64,000 nt of DNA, from NCBI GenBank assembly GCA_044892525.1, contig CM097885.1, forward strand, positions 122,574,001 through 122,638,000. The letters run 5' to 3'. The first letter of the stretch is position 1. Each line of letters opens with the position of its first letter. The DNA comes from Schmidtea polychroa (taxonomy: Eukaryota). Both the position numbers and the translations under genes were made by a program. The notes under the pieces are model-generated. The model saw nothing but the letters and a program-made list of their open reading frames with translations. It made no database searches and was not told the origin of the DNA. Positions 28,301 to 62,456 of this stretch are shown here, one piece after another.

Positions 28301-31300
28301 TAAATTTACTTGTGGTGGCAACCAATTAGTAAATGTTTTTAATATTTTAAAATAAGTCGTTGAAACAGGAGGGACGTACATTTTAAATTCAATTGAAGCT
28401 TCGTCAAGATTCATTTGTAATTTGGATTCTTCTAGTTTAATTAGGTTTAAAAATGCTTCTTTATATTTCATGGATCGGATAAATTCTATGGTTTTTATGA
28501 TATTTGTCACTGCATTTGATGTTTTAAAATATTCAAATATTTTACTTTTCTATAATAATAATGAGAGAAATTAATTTAAATAAATAAATAAATAAATAGA
28601 TTTAACAACTAATTATGATTAGAAATTATTGTTTGCATTATACCTAAAATAAAACTGTTTTTTAGATATTTTTATTCATTTAAACAAAATGTAATTTTAA
28701 TACAAGAATATTAATGTAAATGTTTTAAATGAAACTTTCAAAATAATAATCCTTTAAATAATAATTATAAACAACTAACGAATGATATGATAATATTGAT
28801 AATATCTTCTGAATCTTTAATTGCATTTTCATAATATTTTATTCTTTGTTTTATTATATCAGTTTGCATTATTTTTTCTAAAATATTTAGAATTTCAGTC
28901 TTTAAATCAGCCATTATTGAGCAAAGATTCATTATCAATGAATTGTTATATGCATTTTTCAAAGCATTTTTCAAACTGTTAGATAACAATAATGAATTTT
29001 TAGCTTTATCTAAATACATTTCCGGTAATTATTAGTCTTTAAATGGATAAAAAATATTTACCACTTATCATTTCCATTACATCGGCGATTTTACTTACTA
29101 CAACTTTATAAACTTCAAATGCTTTTTTACCGAAATTTACAATTGTCTGAATTCTGCTTTTTATATGGTCATAGGTAATTGAATTCAATTTGTTCTTAAA
29201 ATAGAATTGTTTTAAATTAATAAAAAAGACTTAATTTACCTTAATTGGTTCATATAAAATCGAGTAGAGTTTAGCTTCTATGAACCACTGATACAAAGTG
29301 CTTGAAAGAACAGTTTTCAGTTCATAGCAAGAGTTTTGAAAGCGAATTAAACTTAATGAAAAATCTAAATTTGCTAAACTGTTTGCCAATTGTTTTAATG
29401 CTGTCTTTATGTAATAATTATCATTTTCATAACTTAAACTAATAGTCTTCGGAATCGCTTCCAAATCATTTACTATACTTTTTGCAAAATTAAGACTAAC
29501 AGGAACGTTAACATTTTTTATAATATCCATTTTTACAGATGATAAGTATTTTGAAAGTTGATTTTCACTATTTTGATAGGTTTGCGTCATAAGATTTTGA
29601 ACGTTTTTCGGACTCAAAATCAAATCTATTAGTTTCTAAAAATAATTTTCATTTTTAAAAATATCAAATAAAGTCTTTTAATATCTGAAAATAAATTTTA
29701 AAAATTAATAAATAATTTAATATAATTTTTAGAGTTCAATAAAAAAATCAAACTTTAGATTATATTTTAATTTATTAAGGCATAATTTCTAAATAATATA
29801 TAAACCTAATTTAATTTAAATAAATTTTAAAATTTAATATTTTCTAACAAAAGACTAATTTATTTATTATTTGCAATAGTAATTACTTTTATAATTTAAA
29901 CAAAAATTTATTTTTATCAAAATTTTAGTTTCTATAATATAACTAGAAGTTGTTATAAATTTTTCTTTAAATTTTTAAAAAATTAAAAAGTTTTTAATTT
30001 TAATTTTAATTATTATTTCATTTTAATTATTTAATTGTAAAAAATTTACTTTTATTCTTTCAAGTAATGCAGGATTCCAGTAAAGTTTGGAATTTAGAAC
30101 GTTACGATCATCAATATTGAATTTCAAAGAAGCATCTAGTATTTTTTTATCAGATGTCTTTCGATATAGTTCTCCAATAATAAAGTTTCCAACGGGTCTT
30201 ACGTGAATAACTATTTCTAAATATTTTTTTATCACCAGAATAATATTATCACTTGAATGTTTACTTTCATCTTTGTTGTTCAGCTCAAAGTAATATTTTA
30301 TAGGACTTCTGGAAAAGGTGGAGAATGCTGAAATATCTAAACCGTTTTTACCTAATTTTAATGCATAGTCACTTCTATATCCATATTGGTACATAACCCG
30401 ATTCATTAATATATTGAAATCTTTTCTATTCTAAATTTATAAATAAATGAATGTGATTTAAACAAAAAATAACTGAACTGTTAAGTGGAACTTTCTCAAT
30501 GGAATATATTGGAATAGAAATTCTTTAGTCGGCAAATCACTTTGGATCAGTTTGTATTCTAATAATATATTTATTATCTAAAGTTTTTATTAAAAATAAA
30601 TTTTCTCTACCTAAAGATATTTCTTCTGAAGCAAATATTGTCGTTATTGTAAGAGTTGCAAACTTCTCATAATTCGTGCTGTGGAGTTTTATTTCATAGC
30701 TTCTTGTAGAGAGTTGTCTTAGATAGCTTTTCATTGTAAAAAATGCAGTTTTTTCATTGACAAATGAAGCATTGACCTCTAAGGCATACAAATCACCAAT
30801 ATCGAGGCTTACATCTCTTTTAACAACTACTTTGACTTCCTATTAAAATCAAAAAAATTTCTAATAATAATATTATTTATAACTCACTTTATGCATTAGT
30901 GACGTATTAAGCTTTACCTCCAATTTATAATCTGACTTCAACGATCCTTTCATAGCATAATTTACATTGATAAAATTGTTTTTATCAGATGATTTTCCAA
31001 TACTTTCAACATCCAAATATAATTTTCCGACATTTGCATCGTGTTGTATTACTTGAGAACGCATTAAACGAATTTTGTTTATGGGATTTTCAAATAAAAT
31101 AATTTTTTCATCATTCATATTCTTTATTGTCAATATCAAACTATGGCGTTTTGATTTGTGCCATGTCAACTCATATCTCCTTTCATTTTTCTCCAAATTC
31201 ATACCAACCACGATTTCTCGAGCACTATTTTTATGGGTTACGTAACAGTTAAAGGTGGGCTTTAATTGACACTTTGATAAGCAACTCCATAATTCCGTTT

Positions 31301-34300
31301 TGTAAGCTCCGTCTTTTACGATAATTGAATGGGAGAATTTATAATTCGTTACATCTAAACTTATTTCACCTTTAACATTTTTGTTTCCCTTATAATCTAA
31401 TTTTATACTATGGGGATTGTTTTTATTTGCAACGTATATCTTTAAATTTAAATCGGATAATTGTTTTTTGTTTAATCGTATTGATATAATGAATTCGTAA
31501 GATTTTGGAGAATCTTTATATAAATAATTAAATTTCAAATTGAAGTTTTTCATTTGTTCAAACGGAGAACTACCTTTCAATTCCAAGCCCCATTTTGCCT
31601 TCTCATTTTCAATAATTATATTTACTTTTAATGGTTGAGGCCAATTATAGTTTAAAACAACTTCATATTCCATAGACTTTTTTCTAGCAATTCTAATTTC
31701 GTAGTTTTTAGAAATTTCAATATAATATTCTTTACCGACTGGAAAGTAGTTTTCACTTTTATCTATTGATAATAAGTTTCCCAGGTTTGTGCTCATCGTA
31801 TAATTGTTTTTGAGATATGCTAGGCTCAAGTCTAAGTCACCTTTAGGTCTTGTGACTTTCAATCCTAATCCAAGTAAGATTTCTTTTGTAGGCAACTCAA
31901 ATTTTGAATTCAATTGAATGAGTTTAGCATTATAAATAGCTAAGATATTTGATTTGTATTCATTTTTAATATTCGAAGATGACTTGGCCATCATGTCACT
32001 ATAGCTAATAAATTTTATTAAATGGGAAACATCAAATATGAGCTCTTTATCAATTGTTAAAAAGCCGGAATCCTCCCATTCGTACATTGGAAGGTTTCCA
32101 TCTAAAGAAATCAAATTTTTACAACTCATTGAACGAGACGATTCGATTGTAGTCTCAGAACTATAAAAGCTTTTTGTGCCTCCAGGAAATTGTTCGCTAT
32201 TCATGTGATAAATTTCTGTGGTTCTTTTAAATTTTGTGTTGAATATTTTCCCATTTATTTGATATTTAAAATAAATTCCTTTCTTAAATTTAAACAAAGA
32301 TAGAACAGCATCACTGATTGTTTTAACACCCGATGGATATTTAACATTTATATTTAAATTTGCCTTCATAATATTTTGATCTTTATAAACGAATTCGATG
32401 GTACCTGATTTCTTTTCTCCCGATTCCGACTTTAAATTGACATCAAATTTCAAAACTTTATCAACAGAAATTTTCAAAATTAAATTGTCATTGAAATCAT
32501 AAGACAAAACGATCATTTTTGGGTCTGTATTTTTTGAAACGGCTTCAATTTCAAGACTCTGTTTATAGAGTCCTGAGGGTTTGTATGTAAATTTATACTG
32601 CAGTTCTTTATATTTGGCAATTCCTTTATAACTACTATCCGATTCTTTTTTAATTTCTATATTGAATAAAACCTCATTTAATTTCAGAGAGATTTTTGGA
32701 CAGTTTGCTTGAAAATTGAAAACTCCTTTAGCAAAGTTTTTGTCAACAAAACCAATCGCTTTCAGCGAATTATCTTGATATTTCATGTCCATTTTAGAAA
32801 ACCAATTTGCTTCACCAAAAGTTTCAAACTTCTTAGGTCTTTCACTATCTACCTTTCGAAAGTAAATGAATTCAAATTGCATTTCATCATAAACGGGTTT
32901 CAAATGTAATTTATATTTCAGACTCATATCTCTGATGGAATTAAAATTATACTTGACGTCGAATTTTATTTGTGAAAGTTTCGAATATTTGATGTAGTAG
33001 CCCAGTTGACTGTCGATTTGTATTTCTCCCGACGGTAAGTCGACTTTATATAATTGAATCGTCTTTCCTTTGTATTTTGAATGCAAATTTAATTTGTAAG
33101 ATTGGAAAAACTTACCAGTTTCAAAGTAGCTATTCATTGCAACAGAAAGATCATTGAAAACTTCATTGCTCGACTGTAAATTCATTGCAAAATCGACAGA
33201 GTTTTTCCCATTTTCAAAAATCCAAGAGACTTTTGTGTTTGAAATCTTTAAAAACTTTTCCTTGAATCCGAATTCCGAATTGATTGTGTATGTATTTTTA
33301 GAAATTCTTGAAATAATTAAAGAGATTTTAAGAGGAACAACAAAGAAAGATTCTCCGAGAATTTGGAATTCATTGGACTTGTTGTCAATTGAAAATTTGA
33401 TGTTGACTTTTTTAGAATTTTTGTAAATTAAACTAAAGTTGATTTGGGAATTTACGTTTTTAGACACTAAAATTCCGAACACATATGATCCGGAATTTAA
33501 ATAAGGAATATTTGACACCCATTTGACATTGCTCACCCAATCCAATCCATTATTCAAGTCTAATTTTCGCACTTGAGTAATTTCAATGTTGTAGGATTTT
33601 GTTGATTTCAAATAAAAGCTACTCCTTCCTTGGTAAGTGTTACCGATTCCTTTCAGTTCAGAGGAAATGGTTAGTTCTTTTAACAAATCATTGGAAGACT
33701 TGATTGATAACATAAATGATGTGTTTGGAATGTCTTTGATATTGACAATCATACTCATTGTTAGATATTTATCATTATATTTTAGATTAAACCCCGATTC
33801 CAAATATTTCGCATCTAATTTTATTTTGGAATTAAGTTCGAATAATTTATTTAACGAAGAGTCTTTTACAATTACAGCTTGCATATCAAAGACAGTCTTT
33901 TGATCACTAAGGTCGTAATTTCCCTTTAATTTTAACTCGTAATACTTAGCAGTTCTTTCATTTTCAAACTGCCATTTAGTAAGAGCATTGGAAGTTATTG
34001 TTCCCTTATTACTGGAGGCTGAATTCAATTTAAAGTTAAATCCCAAAATTACCTTTGATAATTTCACCATGGATAATAGTGGATGGCTTATATCAAAATT
34101 GATATCGAAGTCTCTAATTCCGGTACCATAATATTTTATAGATCCTTGGAATGGGATTAAATTAGTCTTTGAATCTTTGCCATATTTACCATTCCATGTA
34201 AGAGATAAAGTATTTTGCAATTTTAATAGCATCTCAATGTTGTTCTTATAATAGAAATTATAGTTTTTATTTTTCTTCATATCCAGTGACATCAAAAATG

Positions 34301-37300
34301 AACTAGTAAATCTTTTCCCATTTTCACTGCTCGATTTCCACAGAACTTCATAATTAATAAATTTCTCAGAGTCTATTGAAAATCCGTAAAGAGTTTTGCT
34401 ATTCTTTTTATTTCTTTTAATGGTATATTTATCCATTGCTGTTCCTCTATAAATAATTGTTTTAATTTGATTGAATGCTTCCTCTGCTTTAACTTCTTCA
34501 GCAATAATTTCATATCCGAAAGTCTCTTTGTTTTTATTTGTATAAATAATTTTACTTTCAATTGCTTTATCATTAATATTTATTTCCCCATCCAATATAA
34601 TATTAGCATATTGTTTCATTTCTACAGTAAAGTCAATTTGCTTTCGAGGGATTTGCATTTCAATTTTCGAAGCAAAATCAAATTTGATTTTATTTAATGC
34701 AAAATAAGAATTTAATTGCATTCCTAAATTGACGGAATACAATTTGGCTTCGGGAGTCTTTCCAATACTTTTGAATGAGTAAAGAACCTTTTCATAATCT
34801 AATTCTGCTGTATTTGTTATTGTCGCTAATAATTTTCCGTTCATTTTTAGATCGTGAGTTATTACAGAATTAAACGGAGTGATACTTTTCGTATCGACTT
34901 TGGAGTTAATGGTAAAAGAATTCTCCAGCCAGGACACCGTTAGGGCATGACTTTTCGGTAGATTTAGTTCACTGTTGATTTTAAAAATAGTTTTTTTGTA
35001 AACAATTTCTAAAGATGAAATCCCGTTTTGGGTGGTGGTAAATTTATGCTTTAGTAAAAACTTCAGTAAATCACTTTCCGTTAATTCAACTTCTATATCA
35101 TACATATCCAAACTGTTCTTTTTCCAAGTAGCTTTCGAATTTAAGTTGTGAGAAATTTTCTATAAATTAATGTTTATAATTTTAATTATAAGAAATTATA
35201 ATTAAAAATAAAAATAATCTATTTAGTGCTACTAAATTTTAATTATTTAATTTTAATTAAATAAATATTATGTAGGATTCAATTTGAAATGTTAGATTTA
35301 AAAATAAATTTTATTGACAGATTATATAATAATTTCTAAGCTTCCTGAAACGAATATTTTCATTTTAAATTATGAAAATTTAAACATAAAATGGCAACGA
35401 AATTTGAAAATATTTTCGGTTAATCATAAATTAAAACAATTTTTTAAAAAATAGTAAATTATCATTCACCTCAGATTTCATTGAATTTATATATTTTACA
35501 TATATTTATGATATTAATTAAGCCAATTTCTAACGATAATATTAAAAATTACTTTTAACAATATGGGCATAATGATTCAGTAGTAATTTATATACTAATA
35601 TGTCAATTTTACTTTAATATTATTTTATAAAATTCGACTTTTCTCTATCGAATAATGCAAAATTTGTCTAATTTGGTAAAATAATTCTTTTAAAACTTCA
35701 TTTGTAAATTTTTTTATTATTTAGATTTACATGTTTTATTTTCATAATTTATTTATTTTAACTATATATTTAACTATATAAATTAATTTTAATTGTTTAC
35801 AGTCATACCCCGGATAACGTTGCCCCGAATAAAGTTGTTTCGCTGTAACGTCGGTCCACCATGGTGAAAAAGGATCTTTTAAATCTTTTAAATCTATTTA
35901 ATTGCGAATTTTTTTCTTAATTATAATTGCTTCGTATAACGTTGTTTCGGTTAACATCGCGTTTTTCTGGAACCATTTAACAACGTTAACCGGGGTATAC
36001 CTGTATATGCTAAATTACATTTAAATGCGACTTTATGTAATAAAATTAATATAAGTAATTTGCAAACTAAATAAGTTGTCTTTTATTTTCGGTTTATTCT
36101 TTACAAACATTGTTTATAATTGAATCTATGATTGTTTAAATAATTTTATTTTGTTTTAAATGTCAAGAATGTTTTTTATTTGAAATTGAATATAAAATTC
36201 GATAAATACTTCCGAATTGTGTCACTATTAAAAAGTCAGATTTAATCTATTTCGATATTACTTAATTAGTATAGTTTTAAACATATAAAATTATACTAAA
36301 ATCATACATGGAGATATGGTATAAGTGTGCTATTTGAAGATAAATAATTTTATTATAAATAAATAAGTTTTTTTATTAATGAGTTTTGAAAGCTCACATA
36401 ATTAGATTTGCTTGTCACATAATTTTTTTATTTGTTTAATATTTAAAATATGAAATTATATATTTATCGAAAATATTGGTTTCTTGGTAGCAGTATAAAT
36501 GTGTTTACCCCAATAAAGGCACAGCAAAACGACGCGAACAATAAAAGCGCAGATATAAAAAGGAAATATCTCCAGCTAGTTCTATATATCTTTTTTAATC
36601 ACTAGAATCTAGTTATAAATACTTAATTCATAATTCGATATAAATTTATCTACACACTTATTGTCCTCGTCTTTATTGGTGGATATTGTATAAATGAAAA
36701 GATAAGCCAATAAATGAAGAAATAAACTTTTTCTGTAAAATATTTATTTAGTGAAAACTTTCGATTATAAATTTATTTGTTTTAATCCATTTTATAATAA
36801 TAAATTTTCACATAAAAATATTTTGCACCAAAGTCTTATCATATCATTTATTTATTTAATATATGATATTTGAATATCATTTTTTATCATTAAGGTTAAT
36901 TATGATGATAAAGTTGTTTTAATTAAATGTTTAATTTAACAAAAAAAGTAAAAAAATTTAAATTACCCAATTTTGACTGTTAATGATATTACGAAACACA
37001 ATTCTTCCATTTTTAGGATTTAAATCTGCAAATAATTTTGTGTTTACTTGACGGACATATGTTTTCTTTAATTTATCAAATGTTTCTAGCTTAAAATTCA
37101 TTAATAAAGGCTTAGTTTCGAAACTCAAAAATTTGTTTGAAATGAAAAAATTAATATCATGATTCACATTAAATCTAGACAAAAAATGTAATAAAATACA
37201 AATAAAACTTATGATACTTTTTTTGTCCAACTTCGAATAACTGTTCCCTAAATATTGAAATTATAAGTGATTTTAGATAAAGAAAACTTACAATAAAATT

Positions 37301-53300: not shown

Positions 53301-54906
53301 GAAGACCAAGAAGCCAATCACACCTCAATTTCAAACATGGATCAACCAATTAAGGTCTGGACATTGAAATGGAATATTGTAAAGGTGAAACGCATTCTAA
53401 TGCAAATGCACTATCGTGAACTGAATGCAATATGTACATACTATGTCAAACGATTCACGAAGAACTAAAAACAGGAAAACTAAAAACAAAGATTTTAGCA
53501 CGCATGTGTGATAAGATGGAAAATTGTGCCAACAAGATTCTAAAGAAATAGAAAAGATCAAAAAGATATACTAATCGGGAAAGAAACAAAATTGACAGAA
53601 AATAATGACATTATTCATTCAAGTAAAGATAAAATATTGATTCCATACGAACGAAAAGTAGAATTTGTTTTGTACACCAATAAAATTTTGTGTCATGTTG
53701 CACTAAATAAAGTCCACGAATATATTTTTAGGAAATTTGACATAAGAAACAGACAAGAATTTATTAAAGAAGTAGTCGGATCGTGTGAAAATTGTCAATA
53801 AAGAAAGGTTATGACTACACGAAAAAACAGAGAAACTAATTAAACCAACAGAGGTTTATTTATTCGAATCAATTTTATTGACTTTTGTGACCCAATAAAA
53901 AACTGCTAGGAGTGGAAAGAAGTATATTTTGACAATTAAAGACTAATTTAGTAAATATATTTCTTTATTTGGAGTTTCAGGGCAAGATGAAAAGACAGTT
54001 TCAACAATTATTAACGAAAAATGGATTTTGAAATTTGGTGCTCCAAGGATTATTCATTGTGATAGAGGAAAAGCATTTGAGTCAGCTTTATAAAAAGCAT
54101 TTGCAGAGAAACATGGGATTAATGTAGTATATTCAAATCTGTATAATCATTCAGCTAATGAACAAACTTAACAACAATTTAGAACTATTAGAGATGCCAA
54201 CCAAATTTCCTTTAAAAAAGAACGGGCAAAGAGTCGAAATACTTTCTGAAGTTGAATTTATGTTGAATGCAACAATTCAGAAATATACTCAGTTGAATCC
54301 TGCACAAATTGTTTTGGGAAAAAGATTGCCAGAGAATGGTATGAAAATGAAGAGCCATATAAACTACAATTATTAATGAAAAGCGTAAATCAGAAAGATT
54401 AACGTTACTAAAACGAATAAAAGGAAATAAGGACGATAAATTATATTTCAGTGAAGAAGAGCAAATCGAATTTTCAATGTCGGGGATGTTGTATTGGTAA
54501 AATGACTGTTTCGACCAGTCAGAGGGGGATTGCCTCTGGCTGGCGTTTATTTGGCTTTTTTCTATCGCGTCTGTGTGCGCGGTCTGGTTAGACCGATTCT
54601 TGTTGGTGTGCGCACACAGACGCGAGAAGTAGGTTTTGATTTTTTGTACAATGTGATTTATGAATTGATTTTTTAGGGTTTTAATAGAAATTCTGTAATT
54701 TTGGTGGAAATTAGATTTTGGTTTGATTTGTTTTAAACGGAATTATTGGTGGAGTTTTTAAATGGATATTTTGGAAGAAATAAGTTTGGTTTAAAATGGT
54801 TGGATTTTTTGAATGAAATTGGAATTTCGAAATTGGAATTAACATTTTGAAAAAGTTTAAAATGGAACGTGAAAGAATATCGAAATCGGAAATGGATCCA
54901 GAACCT

Positions 54907-55017
54907 GCAGATGCTTATGCGGAAAGTTGCATAAGCACAATTGGAGTTGACTTTGAAATCAGAACTACTGAATTAGATGATGAAACTATAAAATTGCAAA
55001 TATGGGACCCAGCTGGT
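54907..55017 (+). pseudogene. RAB1: Captured Rab1/Ypt1-type GTPase fragment (switch I to G3); duplicate at 58826-58936
   Basis: [37 protein letters not shown] versus the Rab1 consensus [38 protein letters not shown]. Lacks the P-loop and C-terminus. Confidence 0.9.
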
Positions 55018-55451
55018 CTATTCGAGATTAAATTAATTGGAGATGAATATTTCACTTTTATCACTGAATGTAAAGATCCCAAAGCATGCTCGATTTTGTT
55101 GAGAGGTAGCGCAAAGATGTTTTGAATGAAATTGAGAGAAATCTTGGCGATGCTATGTCAGTTGCTAGAAACGTTATGATGGAAAATACTCTCGTTCCTG
55201 GTGGAGGAGCATTGGAAATGGCTCTATCAACTCACTTGACTCTTAAAGCACAAAATATCGTTGGAGTACGACAAAACGCTTATCTGGCTGTTGCTAATGC
55301 GTTGGAAGTTATTCCAAGAACTTTGGCCCAGAATTGCGGTGCTAAGGTGTTGAGGTTGATTACGGAATTGAGAGCAAAGCACGCTAATAATCCGGCTAAT
55401 AATTGGAGTATCGGTGTTGATGGAGAGGAGGGAGTGATTGTCGACATGAAA
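55012..55451 (+). pseudogene. CCT3: Captured chaperonin TCP-1 gamma fragment with a 1-nt frameshift near 55110; duplicate at 58931-59370
   Basis: [32 protein letters not shown] / [58 protein letters not shown]. The IGDEYFTFI and CKDPKAC motifs are CCT3-diagnostic. Confidence 0.92.
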
Positions 55452-56771
55452 ATCAATCGTCGTATGATTTTTGCTGCTTTAAACTCTGACGGTGAAATGG
55501 AAATGACATTATTAAATAATAAAATTCTAATGCGTTATTCTGATCTGAAACATGGTAGCAGAGCGTGGTTCCGGCTAGCCAGCCGGAACAAGGTATTATT
55601 GATATTTTTTATTAATGATATTTGTATGTATTATATTTTATTTTCATGTGATAATTTTGAAACATTTCCCCTAGGGCCTGCCCTCCCTAACCCCATTAGA
55701 GGTGGATTGGCGCGGGTATTTGTCAAAATAATAACAGGGAAGACAATTACTCTCGAAGTTGAATCTAGTGACACGATAGAAAATGTTAAAGCGAAAATAC
55801 AAGATAAAGAGGGTAGTCCACCTGACCAGCAACGATTAATTTGCGCGGGAAAACAATTAGAAGATGAGCGAACATTATTTGATTATAATATTCAAAAGGA
55901 GTCTACTTTGCATTTAGTTTTGCGATTGAGGGGTGGAATGCAAATATTCGTGAAGACATTGACTGGAAAAACAATAACTTTGGAAGTAGAATCAAGTGAT
56001 ACTATTGAGAATGTAAAGGCTAAAATTCAAGAAAAAGAAGGGATACGCCCAGGGCGACAAAGACTTAATTTTGCCGGGAAAGTATTAAAAGATGGCTTAA
56101 CGTTATTAGATTATAACGTTAGGAAAGAAGCCACGGTACATCTGGTTTTGGGTCTGGCAGGGGGAAGACCAGTATCAGATGCGGAGTTCGAGGCAGGTTA
56201 CAAGAGACGAACCGGGTGGAAGATTTCGTTAGGGCGTCTAAGTAACCGGGCCTTAGGAGATGGATCGGACCCTGGGGAAGATCAAAGGAGAATGGAGGCA
56301 TACGAAGATAAGTATGAGGAAGTGATAAACGAATTTGAGGAGCTGAGGAATAATACTCGGGAGTTAGGGCGGGAGAAAGAAGAAAAGGAAATTGAGGCAG
56401 ATCTGAAACGGTTAGAAGCGGACTTCAGCAGAATCGGTGATCTGGTCCTCACGCAGAAGGAAGAGAGTTTTAGAGTGGAGTCGCGGAAGGGCACAGAAAA
56501 ATCATTTAGGAGCGAAGAGCCCAATGAGAAACAGAAGTGCATAATGGGTTTGAAACCCTTGCAGCTGCCGATCTTTAATGGAAAGGTAATGGAATATCCT
56601 GGATGGAGGGCAATTGTGAGAGCCAGCATCGAGGACACGGATGAGCCGAGTGAGAGAAAGTACTTGTACCTGAGACAGTACTTGGAAGGGAAGCCGCTGC
56701 AATTAATTGCCTATATTGGATATGGCTCGCAGGCTTTCGAGGCGGCGATGAAATTACTTGATGAAAGGTAA
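55122..56771 (+). CDS. Chimeric ORF: CCT3 fragment - linker - ubiquitin 1 (55716-55937) - ubiquitin 2 (55938-56165) - coiled coil - BEL/Pao-type Gag (DUF1759-like from ~56550); Gag continues in the same frame after TAA 56769-56771 to ~57100
   Basis: Ub1 [33 protein letters not shown]...LRLRGG. Ub2 [11 protein letters not shown]...LVLGLAGG. Gag [47 protein letters not shown]. First in-frame ATG at 55155. Expression unknown. Confidence 0.8.
55553..55570 (+). other. Primer-binding site complementary to the 3' end of initiator tRNA-Met
   Basis: TGGTAGCAGAGCGTGGTT directly after the 5' LTR. TGGTAGCAGAG is the reverse complement of the conserved iMet 3' end CUCUGCUACCA. Confidence 0.85.
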
Positions 56772-57169
56772 GGGGGACCAGAAAGATCCTATTCCATGAT
56801 GCTGGATGCGGCGCAGAGGTTCTTCCCAGTGAGGCTCAACGTCTTGGAGGACCTAGAGCGGTTTGTAGAGCTTCTAGGAAACCTCATCCTGAATTTCAAG
56901 GATCAGAAGAGGGAAGGCGAGTTGAACAACGGAATGTTGTATCACCAACTGCTGAAGAAGCTGCCAGAGACCATGCTGATTCAGTGGTCACGCCATTGTG
57001 ATTCGGGAAGAGAGGGAAATGTACAAACGCTAGCCAAGTGGATCAAAACAGAAGCCGATAGGCATCGAAAAGCCTTGAATATATTGTTTGGGGAGAGAAC
57101 TCCAGGGAGTAGGAAGGATGTGGGGACATTGAAAAAGTTCACAAACTTCATGGAGAGAAAACCAATTGC

Positions 57170-58384
57170 AAGAAATCAAGCTTCAAGATGTTCGCATTTG
57201 GCTCAGAGTTATTTTGCAGTAACGGAAATGTTAAATGACGAGTTACATGCAGTTCGGGGAATTGAAGGCACAAAACTCGACAGGAGTAAGTCATCTAATG
57301 AAGAGCAAGGAGCTCAGAGTCATTTAGATAGGCAAATACCCAATTCTGGGGATACTAACGAATTAATTAACGGCATTGCAATCAGACAAAATTTCTTTGA
57401 GAATAACGAAATAGATTCCATAGATGTAATAAATCCTTCCGATTCAAAAAATGATTCAGATATCGAAAGTAATGAAGATGAAAATGACGAAGAAATGGAT
57501 TATATTAAAGAATGTGATGAAAATGATGAAACACATGAAAACAAAAATGCTAGCGAAGATGGAGAGAGTGAAAGCAATGAATGTGATAAGTCACAATCTA
57601 ACGATATTATAAATCAAGATGAAATAGAGCAAAATCGAGTCAATGAGAACGAGAATAATTATGCTGAATTTGTAAAAATAATACGGAACTATTAGATAAA
57701 GATGTTGATAAAGGAGACCAAGTTACAGCAGATGAATTAGAAAATATTGTCAAAAGTCACAATCAAGAAGAAAATTTTGAAAGTAAACATAATGAAACTG
57801 AAGTAGATGTGTCAGACAAGAATGAAAATCATAATAGTCATGTAGGCACAGATGTTGTCGACATTAATGTTATCGAAAGACCGAATTCTTGGGTAGTAGA
57901 TAATTTTCAAAACATGGAAGACGTAGTTAATGTTCAAGCGGATTCTGCTGCCTCAGAAAATCGTTTAGAAACTGATCGAATTATGCCAGATTCTGAGAGC
58001 AATGACAGTGATCTTAGAGTCGATATTGGTAAAGATCATACATCCGACACAGCGAAAGATTCTGAACAAAATACATTCACTCAACCAACGTCTGCTTTAG
58101 ATGATATCCTTGAAGACTATTCACCTGGTTCCCCTTCATTAAATGAAATGCAACAGGGAAAAGTGGGGACTATTGAATTGGCGAAACATGCAGGAAGGTT
58201 AATGGAGATATTGCAGCGAAACAGAATGAAAAGTGGCAGGGGCTTGGTCGAGTATGGCGATGGTGGGAGGAGAATCCACCATGATGTATCCAGAAAGGTG
58301 CGTGGTGCGGCGGCCTATACCATAGCCAGATGGGTGTGTGAGAGGTATTGGAGAGAGGCCAAAAGAAAGGTTCCCCTGAAGTAA
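57170..58384 (+). CDS. D/E/N/S-rich low-complexity ORF occupying the pol position, with a probable frameshift at ~57675-57695
   Basis: ORFs 56796-57695 and 57809-58384. The acidic composition continues across the frame change. No catalytic motifs. Confidence 0.5.
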
Positions 58385-58402
58385 TTGGTGATTGATCCGC
58401 TA

Positions 58403-58425
58403 GAAGGGATCAAGGAGGGGGGAAA
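58403..58425 (+). other. Polypurine tract
   Basis: GAAGGGATCAAGGAGGGGGGAAA abutting the 3' LTR TG. Confidence 0.85.
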
Positions 58426-59471
58426 TGTTTCGACCAGTCAGAGGGGGATTGCCTCTGGCTGGCGTTTATTTGGCTTTTTTCTATCGCGTCTGTGTGCGCG
58501 GTCTGGTTAGACCGATTCTTGTTGGTGTGCGCACACAGACGCGAGAAGTAGGTTTTGATTTTTTGTACAATGTGATTTATGAATTGATTTTTTAGGGTTT
58601 TAATAGAAATTCTGTAATTTTGGTGGAAATTAGATTTTGGTTTGATTTGTTTTAAACGGAATTATTGGTGGGGTTTTTAAATGGATATTTTGGAAGAAAT
58701 AAGTTTGGTTTAAAATGGTTGGATTTTTTGAATGAAATTGGAATTTCGAAATTGGAATTAACATTTTGAAAAAGTTTAAAATGGAACGTGAAAGAATATC
58801 GAAATCGGAAATGGATCCAGAACCTGCAGATGCTTATGCGGAAAGTTGCATAAGCACAATTGGAGTTGACTTTGAAATCAGAACTACTGAATTAGATGAT
58901 GAAACTATAAAATTGCAAATATGGGACCCAGCTGGTCTATTCGAGATTAAATTAATTGGAGATGAATATTTCACTTTTATCACTGAATGTAAAGATCCCA
59001 AAGCATGCTCGATTTTGTTGAGAGGCAGCGCAAAGATGTTTTGAATGAAATTGAGAGAAATCCTGGCGATGCTATGTCAGTTGCTAGAAACGTTATGATG
59101 GAAAATACTCTCGTTCCTGGTGGAGGAGCATTGGAAATGGCTCTATCAACTCACTTGACTCTTAAAGCACAAAATATCGTTGGAGTACGACAAAACGCTT
59201 ATCTGGCTGTTGCTAATGCGTTGGAAGTTATTCCAAGAACTTTGGCCCAGAATTGCGGTGCTAAGGTGTTGAGGTTGATTACGGAATTGAGAGCAAAGCA
59301 CGCTAATAATCCGGCTAATAATTGGAGTATCGGTGTTGATGGAGAGGAGGGAGTGATTGTCGACATGAAAATCAATCGTCGTATGATTTTTGCTGCTTTA
59401 AACTCTGACGGTGAAATGGAAATGACATTATTAAATAATAAAATTCTAATGCGTTATTCTGATCTGAAACA
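58426..59471 (+). repeat. 3' LTR (1,046 bp) with the second copy of the Rab1/CCT3 fragments
   Basis: Direct repeat of 54507-55552, followed by TSD ATGAC. Confidence 0.95.
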
Positions 59472-60003
59472 ATGACATATGGCAAATAAAAATGAAGACA
59501 TATTTCAGGTTCCAGATAAAATAATAAAGAAGTTACTTGACAGAAGTTTCAATATCGAATTTCAGAATTGAAAATGTAAAATTAGAAATGTGGAATAGAT
59601 CAAACTAGGTTTTATCAGTTTTTAAAAACCGGTTTTTTTAGAAATAAAGATCAGTTTTAAATGTATGCATAACATTAATGTATTTATACAAGGCCGGATT
59701 AAGCAATTTTAGTGCCCAAGGAAAAGCCCACGTGGGCGGCCCCTAATCTTTCACTGACCGTAACCGTTGGTACGTTCAATATTTTTTCGTTAGAGTCAGG
59801 ATTATAGCATGGTGAGTCCTCATGGTCCGCATTTCAGTCATTACCATTTACCCGTAGTTTTTAAAATTTTTAATGCGCTTAATTTTTCAGCATACAAGAT
59901 TGTACCAAATAATTTATACCAATTTATACCCACATATTATCTGCCACTCCGAGATCAGCATGTGTGTAATTATGAAAATATTTGATTGTTTGTGCATGCA
60001 CAC

Positions 60004-60456: not shown

Positions 60457-62456
60457 CATGGGCGTCCGGAAGGGGGAGAACCTGCCCCCCCCCACTGGAT
60501 TTTCCAAACCATTCTATTTTTCGATTATTTGTTCCGCTATGCTTGGTTAAGCTACTACTCATCCTGGCTGAGTTATTCAGTTCGTTTAAAAGGAGCATTT
60601 TACATACTTTTTCCCCAGCCAATAAATCGTGGTTTTCAAGGTGCCTTTTATCACAGGGCCTTTTACGAAATATAAATATTTTTATAAAAGTACCAAAAGT
60701 CACCAATGAAGTGCGTGGCATAAAAATGCATTGGTTTGAGCTGCAAAGTTCTTGCAATTAGGGGAAAAGCCAGAATTGAACATTGTTTGTCTAATGGACA
60801 GTGCTCTAATGCGTCAAGTAGAAGAAAATAGGAAAAAATTGGATCCGATTTTATAAAGTATTTTGTTCTGTGGAGCAACTGACATAGCATTGAGAGGAAA
60901 AACAAGTGCAAGTGCAAATCCGCAAAGCCTCTACGATTTCAGGATTGAAGCTGTAGAAGAAGTACTCAAAAATCATTTGGAAACTTCACCAGCCAATGCA
61001 AGATACACATATGTGCGTGTAGAATATGAACTAATCAAGTTGACTGAAGAAGCCATAAGGGAAGAAATTGTTTCAATGGCCAATAAATCCATTGAATTTT
61101 CAATCATTGGAGATGAGAGTGCTGACATATCTGGAAAAGAACGAATTTCCATAGGAATTCGTTTTGTGAATTCTTTTAGCACATAAACTGTTATTCATGA
61201 AGAATTCCTTGGATTTGCAAAACTGGATCATTTTGAAGCTACATCCATAGCTGATAAAATCATTGATCAGTGCACAAAATTTGGATTAAACCTTGACAAA
61301 ATGTATGGCCAAGGCTAGGCAAAGAAGGTGGCGTTCAGGCAAAAATTAGGAGCAAATACCCTAAAGCTGTTTTTGTGCATTGTGCATCACATCGACTTAA
61401 TCTTGTGATCAATGATCTCAATGCTGTACCAAATGTTAGGAATACAATAGGAACAATTAAGAGCATCATTAGATTTTTTTGAGAAAACCCAAAGATAAGA
61501 AGTCTGATTCCAAATGTTCCCATGCTTTGTGAAACACGTTGGTCTGCAAAATACAAAAGCATCAGACTTTTTGCTGCAAGTTTTGAAGACATTTTTGATC
61601 AGCTGAGTTACAGTGTGCTTCAAGTACAACAAGTATTCTAATTTGTCTTCAAATCATCACTTACTACTCCTCAAAATTAGAGTCAGTAGCACAAGCCCTA
61701 CAATCAACACAATTAAACATTCTGAAAGTTTTTGACCACGTCCAAGAGCTCCTAAAAATTTTCCACACTCAGACAAAATGCCGACGAGTTTTTTAAGACC
61801 ACTATTTCTCAAAGTGAGAAATTGGCAGAACAATTAAACATCCAGTTTAAGAGGCAAACACACCGTTCGAATAATGGTGGTTCAACTGTTGAAGAATACT
61901 TTCGAAGATCTTCCTTTATAACATAATTGGATTCAATCATCTCATCGTTGGAGAGCAGATTCAAATGACAATAACAAAATAAATTTTAGTCTTTTTTCAC
62001 TTCACCCAGTGCAAATGTTGAAACTTTCAAAAGATGAATTCAAAACTCACACAGAAAACATCATAATGGAGTATCAAATTGAAAACTTTGTTGCTGAGGC
62101 AAGAACTTGGTTTGAGATATGGTCAAATAAAAAATCGGATTTTGAAATCAAAAGTCGCGATGAAATGATGGATTTATTACAATTCACAGACCTTTTTCCA
62201 GCTATTAAGAAAGTAGTTCTTATTGCTTTAACTTTGCCAGTGTCAACTTGCACGATTGAAAGACCATTTAGCACACAGAAGAGTCAAAACGTCGCTAAGG
62301 TCAAAAATGTGTAAAAATAGACTTTCTGGACTTTGCTTGATGAGTGTTCATCGTGACAGAATCAATGACAGTAAGAAAAAGCGAAAAATAATGGACAAAT
62401 TGATCAATAAATTTGGTCAAGATCACAGACGTTTGCAGTTTCTTTTCAAAAAGTAA
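60457..62456 (+). mobile_element. Decayed hAT (Tip100/ZMYM1-like, DUF4371 plus hAT dimerisation domain) transposon
   Basis: Left end CATGGGCGTCCGGAAGGG. Motifs FCGATDIALRG, FSIIGDESADISGKERISIGIRFV, VFVHCASHRLNL, CETRWS, TLPVSTCTIERPFS and RLSGLCLMSVH. Stops and frameshifts. Right TIR not found. Confidence 0.85.

Follow-up and report, generated by a model that had tools for sequence, protein, structure and literature searches.

A BEL/Pao retrotransposon lineage whose LTRs hold an exchangeable coding leader, with Rab1::CCT3 as one case

We have found a BEL/Pao lineage of LTR retrotransposons in Schmidtea polychroa whose LTRs carry a coding, exchangeable leader, with ubiquitin placed before Gag. 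One case is a fusion of coding sequence from the host genes Rab1 and CCT3, which lies inside both LTRs of an insertion in the window (by which we mean the whole stretch of 64,000 nucleotides analysed); this fusion is genuine and is the product of one recent swap. Taking the evidence as a whole, we think it likely that the LTR bears the start of its own polyprotein and that Rab1::CCT3 arose when reverse transcriptase (RT) switched onto CCT3 mRNA at microhomologies. LTRs are normally non-coding, and LTR elements are described as capturing mRNA rarely, by accident and at the cost of internal genes. In this lineage capture appears to be routine, to lie within the repeat, to be tolerated by autonomous elements and to be filtered for frame.

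The insertion in the window

Self-alignment of the window, the repeat ends and the primer-binding site (PBS) delimit a young, non-autonomous insertion at 54507-59471. Its assignment to BEL/Pao LTR elements draws on paired TG..CA LTRs, a short target-site duplication, a tRNA-directed PBS and a polypurine tract (PPT), all of which are present. The direct repeats (54507-55552 and 58426-59471) are 1046 bp long, differ at 3 positions and carry the identical Rab1::CCT3 junction, which bears out the claim of an earlier note on this DNA that host coding sequence is fixed inside both LTRs. The features, in window positions, are as follows.

54502-54506 (no strand): left target-site duplication ATGAC, with an identical 5-mer at 59472-59476
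54507-55552 (+): 5' LTR, 1046 bp, TGTTTC...GAAACA (TG..CA ends), 3 mismatches to the 3' LTR
54507-54630 (+): two predicted hairpins at the LTR start, z = -6.6, 0/200 shuffles equally stable
54862-55125 (+): 87-aa frame inside the LTR, opening at its first ATG, Rab1 then CCT3 (Ras and Cpn60_TCP1 matches), shortened by a frameshift
54892-55018 (+): Rab1-derived piece, donor L114, from comparison with host Rab1
55011-55018 (+): 5' crossover, 8-nt microhomology AGCTGGTC, from Rab1-only sister LTRs against host CCT3
55011-55452 (+): CCT3-derived piece, 442 nt here and 443 in the donor (L097), with 10 differences from it
55110-55111 (+): one-base deletion (frameshift) relative to host CCT3, in both LTRs of this copy
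55446-55452 (+): 3' crossover, 7-nt microhomology ATGAAAA, return to ancestral LTR, from sister LTR comparison
55518-55523 (+): AATAAA, likely poly(A) signal, 35 nt before the LTR end; the motif recurs in family LTR ends
55553-55570 (+): PBS, 18 nt, complementary to host tRNA-Met(CAT) at its 3' end; in-frame translation (H)GSRAW
55110-56771 (+): 553-codon open frame, from the remaining CCT3 across the LTR end and PBS into two ubiquitins and the first part of Gag; premature TAA at 56769-56771
55716-55937 (+): ubiquitin unit 1 (domain match), near host type, C-terminal LRLRGG
55938-56165 (+): ubiquitin unit 2 (domain match), C-half diverged, C-terminal LGLAGG, adjoining Gag
56166-57230 (+): BEL/Pao Gag, interrupted and shortened (DUF1759 in sister copies)
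57386-58148 (+): acidic segment; a 2.2-2.4 kb high-depth contig matches it and diverges from the element further on
58412-58425 (+): PPT, adjoining the 3' LTR
58426-59471 (+): 3' LTR from the window self-alignment, with the second Rab1::CCT3 copy, junction 58930-58937
59472-59476 (no strand): right target-site duplication ATGAC, equal to the left 5-mer

The stem of the second hairpin is found again in most family members, and Rfam gave 0 matches across 54450-55750, the LTR-start hairpins included. The PBS matches the 3' end of host tRNA-Met(CAT), with CCA added, at 18/18 positions. There are no tRNA genes within the window; the tRNA-Met(CAT) pattern has 1228 matches genome-wide, and a tandem array of this tRNA with a 454-bp period begins at C1:79.33 Mb (L356-L359). 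The window copy carries no zinc knuckles, protease, RT or integrase, and thus no pol. The acidic segment is likely to be another host-derived capture, and a search for its host donor locus returned only element copies among the 40 of 93 candidates scored.

In a domain search the Ras and Cpn60_TCP1 matches share one frame across 55012-55017, so the in-frame fusion described in the earlier note stands at the junction itself, but it extends over only about 33 CCT3 codons before the frameshift near 55110. There, one base is missing relative to host CCT3 in both LTRs of this copy, and the frame that opens at the ATG at 54862 consequently stops after 87 aa. Since both LTRs share the frameshift, the copy was probably already broken when it was copied, and an open leader was then not needed in cis; we infer that it is a broken passenger that was mobilised in trans.

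The element is inserted where a decayed integrase-like stretch (53500-54500) ends, and a decayed hAT-like transposase lies downstream (60800-62400); both were read by eye. Elsewhere in the window, 30873-35159 on the minus strand holds a 1428-codon open frame with a weak DUF6304 match, below the cut-off.

Donor genes and the origin of the fusion

The host genome amounts to 781 Mb, is AT-rich and has four very large contigs. The CCT3 donor is a gene at C2:112.67 Mb (L016/L097) that is 98% identical to the captured piece; a second CCT3-like gene (L046) was rejected as donor at 61% aa identity. In the donor gene small introns are confined to the 5' region, and a single 1.3-kb exon contains all 443 nt of the captured piece, so that the intron test says nothing about CCT3. 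The Rab1 donor is L114, the paralog L115 being rejected at 77-80% nucleotide identity, and its first four introns (102, 56, 46 and 42 nt) are all GT-AG. All four are precisely absent from the long Rab1 cargo of the copy L086, and the Rab1 piece in the window, which spans only the third, has it spliced out (1/1). The lack of introns remarked on in the earlier note therefore holds for Rab1 and is uninformative for CCT3. The window Rab1 piece retains its own ATG, lacks codons 5-27 and carries lineage-specific substitutions, and the P-loop is deleted in the window subfamily. Rab1 cargo is widespread (150 scored matches, at 88-100% aa identity) and shows about 90% nucleotide identity to its donor; CCT3 cargo is about 1% from its donor, with host-type contigs differing from the element at only 9 positions. 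By these divergences Rab1 is the older capture.

The earlier note placed the junction in the hexamer GCTGGT (55012-55017). Microhomology is indeed present at this point, but it extends over 8 nt, AGCTGGTC (55011-55018), and ATGAAAA (55446-55452) marks a second junction. Nor is GCTGGT common to both host parents, as had been expected, for host Rab1 (L114) has AGCAGGTC there. It is the Rab1-only sister LTRs that supply the match: 8/8 checked have CCAGCTGGTC, matching host CCT3 over 8 nt, and the same 8/8 have ATGAAAA at the CCT3 end point, a 7-nt match, followed by LTR sequence like that of the window. CCT3 replaced 326 nt of an existing Rab1-bearing LTR with 443 nt, a net 39 codons, in frame. 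The LTR piece that it replaced came from the host gene L276, discussed below. Host-type contigs diverge from the element exactly at 55011 (CCT3), 55018 (Rab1) and 55452. Enumeration of in-frame switch points gives a probability of 5.7e-4 for a match of 8 nt or more and 1.6e-3 for one of 7 nt or more, about 1e-6 together; as 48 in-frame matches of 7 nt or more were available between the acceptor and the CCT3 exon, microhomology favours the used sites without singling them out.

With 40 of 1566 candidates scored, the fusion is found in at least 10 distinct insertions, and in 8/10 nothing closes the frame between the junction and the LTR end. In one copy (L094, C2:154.145-154.155 Mb) an unbroken frame of 1377 codons spans Rab1, Gag and protease, and another (L010) has an intact frame of 701 aa. 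The LTRs of L094 differ, the 5' LTR being Rab1::CCT3 and the 3' LTR Rab1-only, which is not expected from one clean cycle; tandem repeats of its 3' part are separated by Polinton-like sequence. Datasets recorded as RNA gave no match to the stretch, and no piece bridging Rab1::CCT3 was found among the 26 pieces listed, of 247, from four contig sets presumed to be RNA; among the contig pieces from these sets, X5 is a Rab1-only LTR piece and X1 extends into the flank.

We consider a double template switch very probably the origin of the fusion. RT copying an LTR that already bore spliced Rab1 would have switched to CCT3 mRNA at the 8-nt match and returned at the 7-nt match. Were the switch to occur during minus-strand strong-stop synthesis in R, the cargo would appear in both LTRs within one cycle; in the standard scheme of reverse transcription, as given in PMC13317346, a switch made while 5' R is copied is passed to both LTRs.

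The earlier note had proposed microhomology-guided switching between two co-packaged host mRNAs. A switch by RT onto a host mRNA holds up, but its partners were, on the account just given, element RNA and CCT3 mRNA rather than Rab1 mRNA and CCT3 mRNA. A direct switch between host Rab1 and CCT3 mRNAs, with the chimera entering an LTR afterwards, would accord with host Rab1 matching 7 of the 8 junction bases and with both pieces being sense and in their native frame. We nevertheless regard it as extremely unlikely: the Rab1 piece has the derived changes of the Rab1-only sister LTRs, these LTRs also supply the sequence past the 3' junction, and the Rab1 cargo is old and widespread whereas CCT3 has scarcely diverged from its donor. 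We also considered a swap at the level of DNA, in which an LTR already integrated would have taken up part of the CCT3 gene through microhomology-mediated repair or gene conversion. Microhomology is a mark of DNA repair too, and a piece taken from within one exon would carry no splicing signature. The other cargo with a located, intron-bearing donor (Rab1, COPG and the L276 gene) is spliced, however, which points to routine capture of mRNA, and no intron cargo was seen, nor any antisense cargo among the 111 antisense segments scanned; a DNA-level swap is on these grounds very improbable, and we retain the double template switch.

Coding leaders and exchanged cargo across the family

The PBS pattern has 233 exact matches in the host genome (control, 0). 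We took a census of 70 PBS junctions, mostly in order along C1. Upstream of the PBS, 50/70 5' LTRs have 100 or more open codons in the Gag frame (the other frames, 1 and 0), ubiquitin is reached in frame in 47/70, and 36/70 have both, counts that are not independent since the sampled LTRs are related by descent. The cargo varies by subfamily and includes PSMA6-like proteasome alpha, Rab1, a dual-specificity phosphatase (DUSP12), adaptin N (COPG) and EAP30 (SNF8), as well as LIM, SelR, ClpP, myotubularin and RPB6; gene names beyond the Pfam labels are those we take to apply. The order DUF1759 Gag, protease, RT, A17, integrase, DUF5641 is found in L116 and in the family-A relics L100 and L029, with the window copy retaining only part of Gag, and most family-A copies seen are without pol. 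A second family, whose integrase is 57% identical to that of the first, has intact single frames of 2121-2238 aa that start inside the 5' LTR and run through PBS, ubiquitin, DUF1759, RT, A17, integrase and DUF5641. The LTR met most often in this second family, in about 25 copies that are 99-100% alike and share one cargo, has the RPB6 5' end followed by spliced exons from L276. This host gene (C1:240.78 Mb), whose scanned exon matches nothing in Pfam, has given different exons to LTRs of both families.

Removal of GT-AG introns was verified at 2/3 joins in the cargo from the L276 gene and at 4/6 joins in the COPG cargo of L205, and no retained introns were seen in cargo. For PSMA6, no donor was located among the 20 loci examined of 90 matches. 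The scan for antisense and off-frame cargo covered 125 of 273 segments from 41 representative LTRs, plus 9 more, and found no antisense host cargo inside an LTR among the 111 antisense segments scanned. What matched were flank transposons, weak repeats, one frameshifted SNF8 piece and one SelR; the last was rejected as antisense cargo because it belongs to an oppositely oriented neighbouring LTR. Capture has also occurred just outside the LTR, with a DEAD-box (eIF4A-like) piece in the same frame between PBS and ubiquitin (L024, L096). We note that eight insertions (L004, L012, L020, L021, L086, L116, L118 and L139) lie in or beside (AAT)n microsatellites, and that a Rab1::PSMA6::MsrB LTR (L282, C1:80.066 Mb) holds an inverted piece of LTR end and PBS.

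An AATAAA lies 33-44 nt before the LTR end in 55/70 copies and at 43/52 distinct ends (shuffles: mean 2.5, maximum 7). Because this motif is conserved near the LTR end and the frame needs an upstream start site, the cargo is probably located in a long R region. Translation of Gag-Pol would begin within the LTR, in many cases at the AUG that came with the donor mRNA; donor 5' UTR and AUG are retained in 3/3 first-position donors checked (Rab1, RPB6 and COPG). If Gag-Pol is translated from such an AUG, only sense, in-frame, stop-free swaps would keep autonomous copies functional, and the amino-acid sequence of the cargo would be free to drift. That LTR-initiated translation filters cargo for frame is, in our judgement, probable.

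The Rab1 cargo may carry the imprint of such a filter. In a set of 48 LTRs, 40 of them top protein matches (which favours intact copies), changes common to two or more copies have a pN/pS of 1.02 and include one in-frame deletion; they comprise 0/37 stops against 2.2 expected, an absence that is weak taken alone. Private changes include 5 stops, and 4 of their 6 indels are frameshifts. With modest power, this pattern fits selection on frame rather than on Rab1 function.

The ubiquitin next to Gag ends in GG in 55/59 host-genome copies, despite divergence of the domain. An L-x-G-G ending before Gag would let host deubiquitinases remove the variable leader, and whether ubiquitin cleavage frees Gag in this way is a prediction from sequence that we hold in even balance. 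In the Gag-proximal ubiquitin, a residue other than Arg usually occupies position 74, and this may slow cleavage. If correct, the prediction places a host-protease step in the retrotransposon life cycle.

The cargo might instead matter as RNA, either by disguising the element as a host message or by making piRNA/siRNA silencing costly through essential genes. Recognisable donors are mostly housekeeping genes, cargo located in R would stand at both RNA ends, and rapid turnover with bursts, such as the 25 or so near-identical LTRs of the second family, resembles an arms race. Abundant mRNAs are, however, also the likeliest to be co-packaged by chance, and nucleotide identity to donors falls with age, as in the Rab1 cargo; we think this account unlikely. 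We find it more improbable still that the cargo polypeptides are functional, as decoys or as dominant-negative trafficking, proteasome, ESCRT or ubiquitin fragments selected as proteins. Pieces of ESCRT-II, proteasome, TRAF and UCH are among the cargo, and the shared CCT3-cargo differences, 5/5, are synonymous. Yet the last are probably host allelic variation, given how few differences host-type contigs show from the element, the shared Rab1 changes are neutral at the protein level in a cargo whose P-loop has been lost in one subfamily, and the fragments are arbitrary and often swapped. An adaptive role for cargo of any kind is doubtful. We offer only tentatively, and would not expect to be borne out, the wider idea that the LTR of this BEL/Pao lineage is a standing exchange slot, in which Gag-Pol would be translated from borrowed host 5' ends in R, a domesticated ubiquitin would free Gag and swapping would itself be adaptive (by hiding the element from small-RNA silencing or making such silencing costly), with hundreds of exon-shuffled host fragments, all in frame and each with an LTR promoter and poly(A) signal, being spread across the genome.

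Filtering of cargo for frame by translation from within the LTR is the reading we prefer. The many natural template switches, with both parents in one genome, offer a way to measure mRNA co-packaging and RT switching. Gene annotation, read mapping and the design of RNAi in this animal can be misled by the hundreds of LTR-borne pieces of Rab1, PSMA6, DUSP12, COPG and CCT3, which stand at 90-99% identity.

Known systems and relatives

Capture of mRNA by LTR elements through template switching was described by Tan et al. in 2016 (PMC5131818), whose accessible text gives a median of 6 bp of shared sequence and, for a mosquito case in a BEL element, 5 and 7 bp at the switches. Like those retrocopies, the cargo described here consists of partial, spliced mRNA joined at two microhomology switches (8 and 7 nt) and forms multi-gene chimeras; element sequence was replaced (443 nt for 326 nt) rather than inserted into, and introns are precisely lost in Rab1, COPG and the L276 gene, CCT3 being uninformative. 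The differences are that internal ORFs were partly replaced in the cases that this text sets out, whereas here the cargo lies between the LTR start and the PBS and is repeated in the 3' LTR, and that here it is in frame with Gag, occurs in autonomous copies too and is serially exchanged across the family. Bs1 of maize (PMC13317346) is likewise an LTR element with a chimeric ORF from several host genes, but it is one element with three donors, and the accessible portion of that source makes no mention of an LTR location, a Gag-Pol leader or ubiquitin; for entry into an LTR that source names only retrotransposon-derived sequence, in BARE-2.

Among BEL/Pao elements, the Flow elements of cnidarians and a planarian carry DUF1759, Peptidase_A17, RVT_1, integrase and DUF5641 in one ORF, as do the intact relatives here, according to the main texts of PMC3118150 and PMC6238403. 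The same texts give two planarian Flow families as 54% alike, compared with 57% for the integrases here (our tree contains no named Flow rows), and the word ubiquitin is absent from them. Giant Gypsy elements of planarians (Burro/GYPSM1) also have host-like domains, including ubiquitin/SUMO-like ones, in the polyprotein, but these are 30-kb Gypsy elements with an N-terminal Gag, and in the accessible text of PMC6431247 the extra domains lie inside the polyprotein rather than forming LTR cargo. Another parallel is found in cytopathogenic pestiviruses (PMC8310069), in which captured ubiquitin coding sequence immediately precedes, within a polyprotein, a protein whose N-terminus must be free, and host hydrolases make the cut. 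A ubiquitin fold ending in di-glycine, in frame before Gag, is present here, and the analogy suggests that the ubiquitin-Gag border is a putative cleavage site; pestiviruses are, however, unrelated RNA viruses with, in that text, sporadic insertions, whereas here ubiquitin is an old and diverged lineage trait whose cleavage is predicted. Full-text literature searches turned up no account of LTRs that hold host-mRNA cargo in frame with ubiquitin-Gag; these families may be described in Repbase reports, subscription papers or supplements, which lay outside this scope, and PMC3118150 cites a 2008 BEL-type Repbase report.

Relatives occur in other sequence sets. All 120 of the 2262 matches listed from a search with the RT region carry PF05380, and the RT region is closest to BEL/Pao. 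Among these 120, at least 7 outside polyproteins have ubiquitin ahead of Gag, in some of them preceded by pieces of kinesin, Sec23/24, a TRAF zinc finger or HSP90, and in 4/7 a translated PBS (GSRAW/C) lies upstream of the ubiquitin; L-x-G-G is found at the ubiquitin end in 8/8 outside polyproteins read. A homologue search with ubiquitin-Gag gave matches dominated by polyubiquitins. In a quick RT tree of 54 of 122 rows (all ubiquitin-bearing ones and the first 45 others), with a midpoint root only, a branch with SH-aLRT 99 separates 9 ubiquitin-bearing rows (both host families and the 7 outside) and 3 rows that start later from 42 without ubiquitin.

The DNA context covers 2 of the 7 outside ubiquitin polyproteins and one further contig, with names that share one dataset prefix; none of the three (L360, L361 and L362) has two assembled LTRs. 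L360 has a PPT, an LTR start at 311, an ATG at 542 opening 528 codons, a CA end and the identical 18-nt PBS at 2128, and AATAAA is absent from the 120 nt that precede the LTR end. In L362 the PBS is read in frame, with AATAAA shortly before it. In L361 (2253-3761) the integrase is followed by a PPT, an LTR-like start and an ORF that encodes a ubiquitin C-terminal hydrolase domain (E 6e-40) and is probably LTR cargo.
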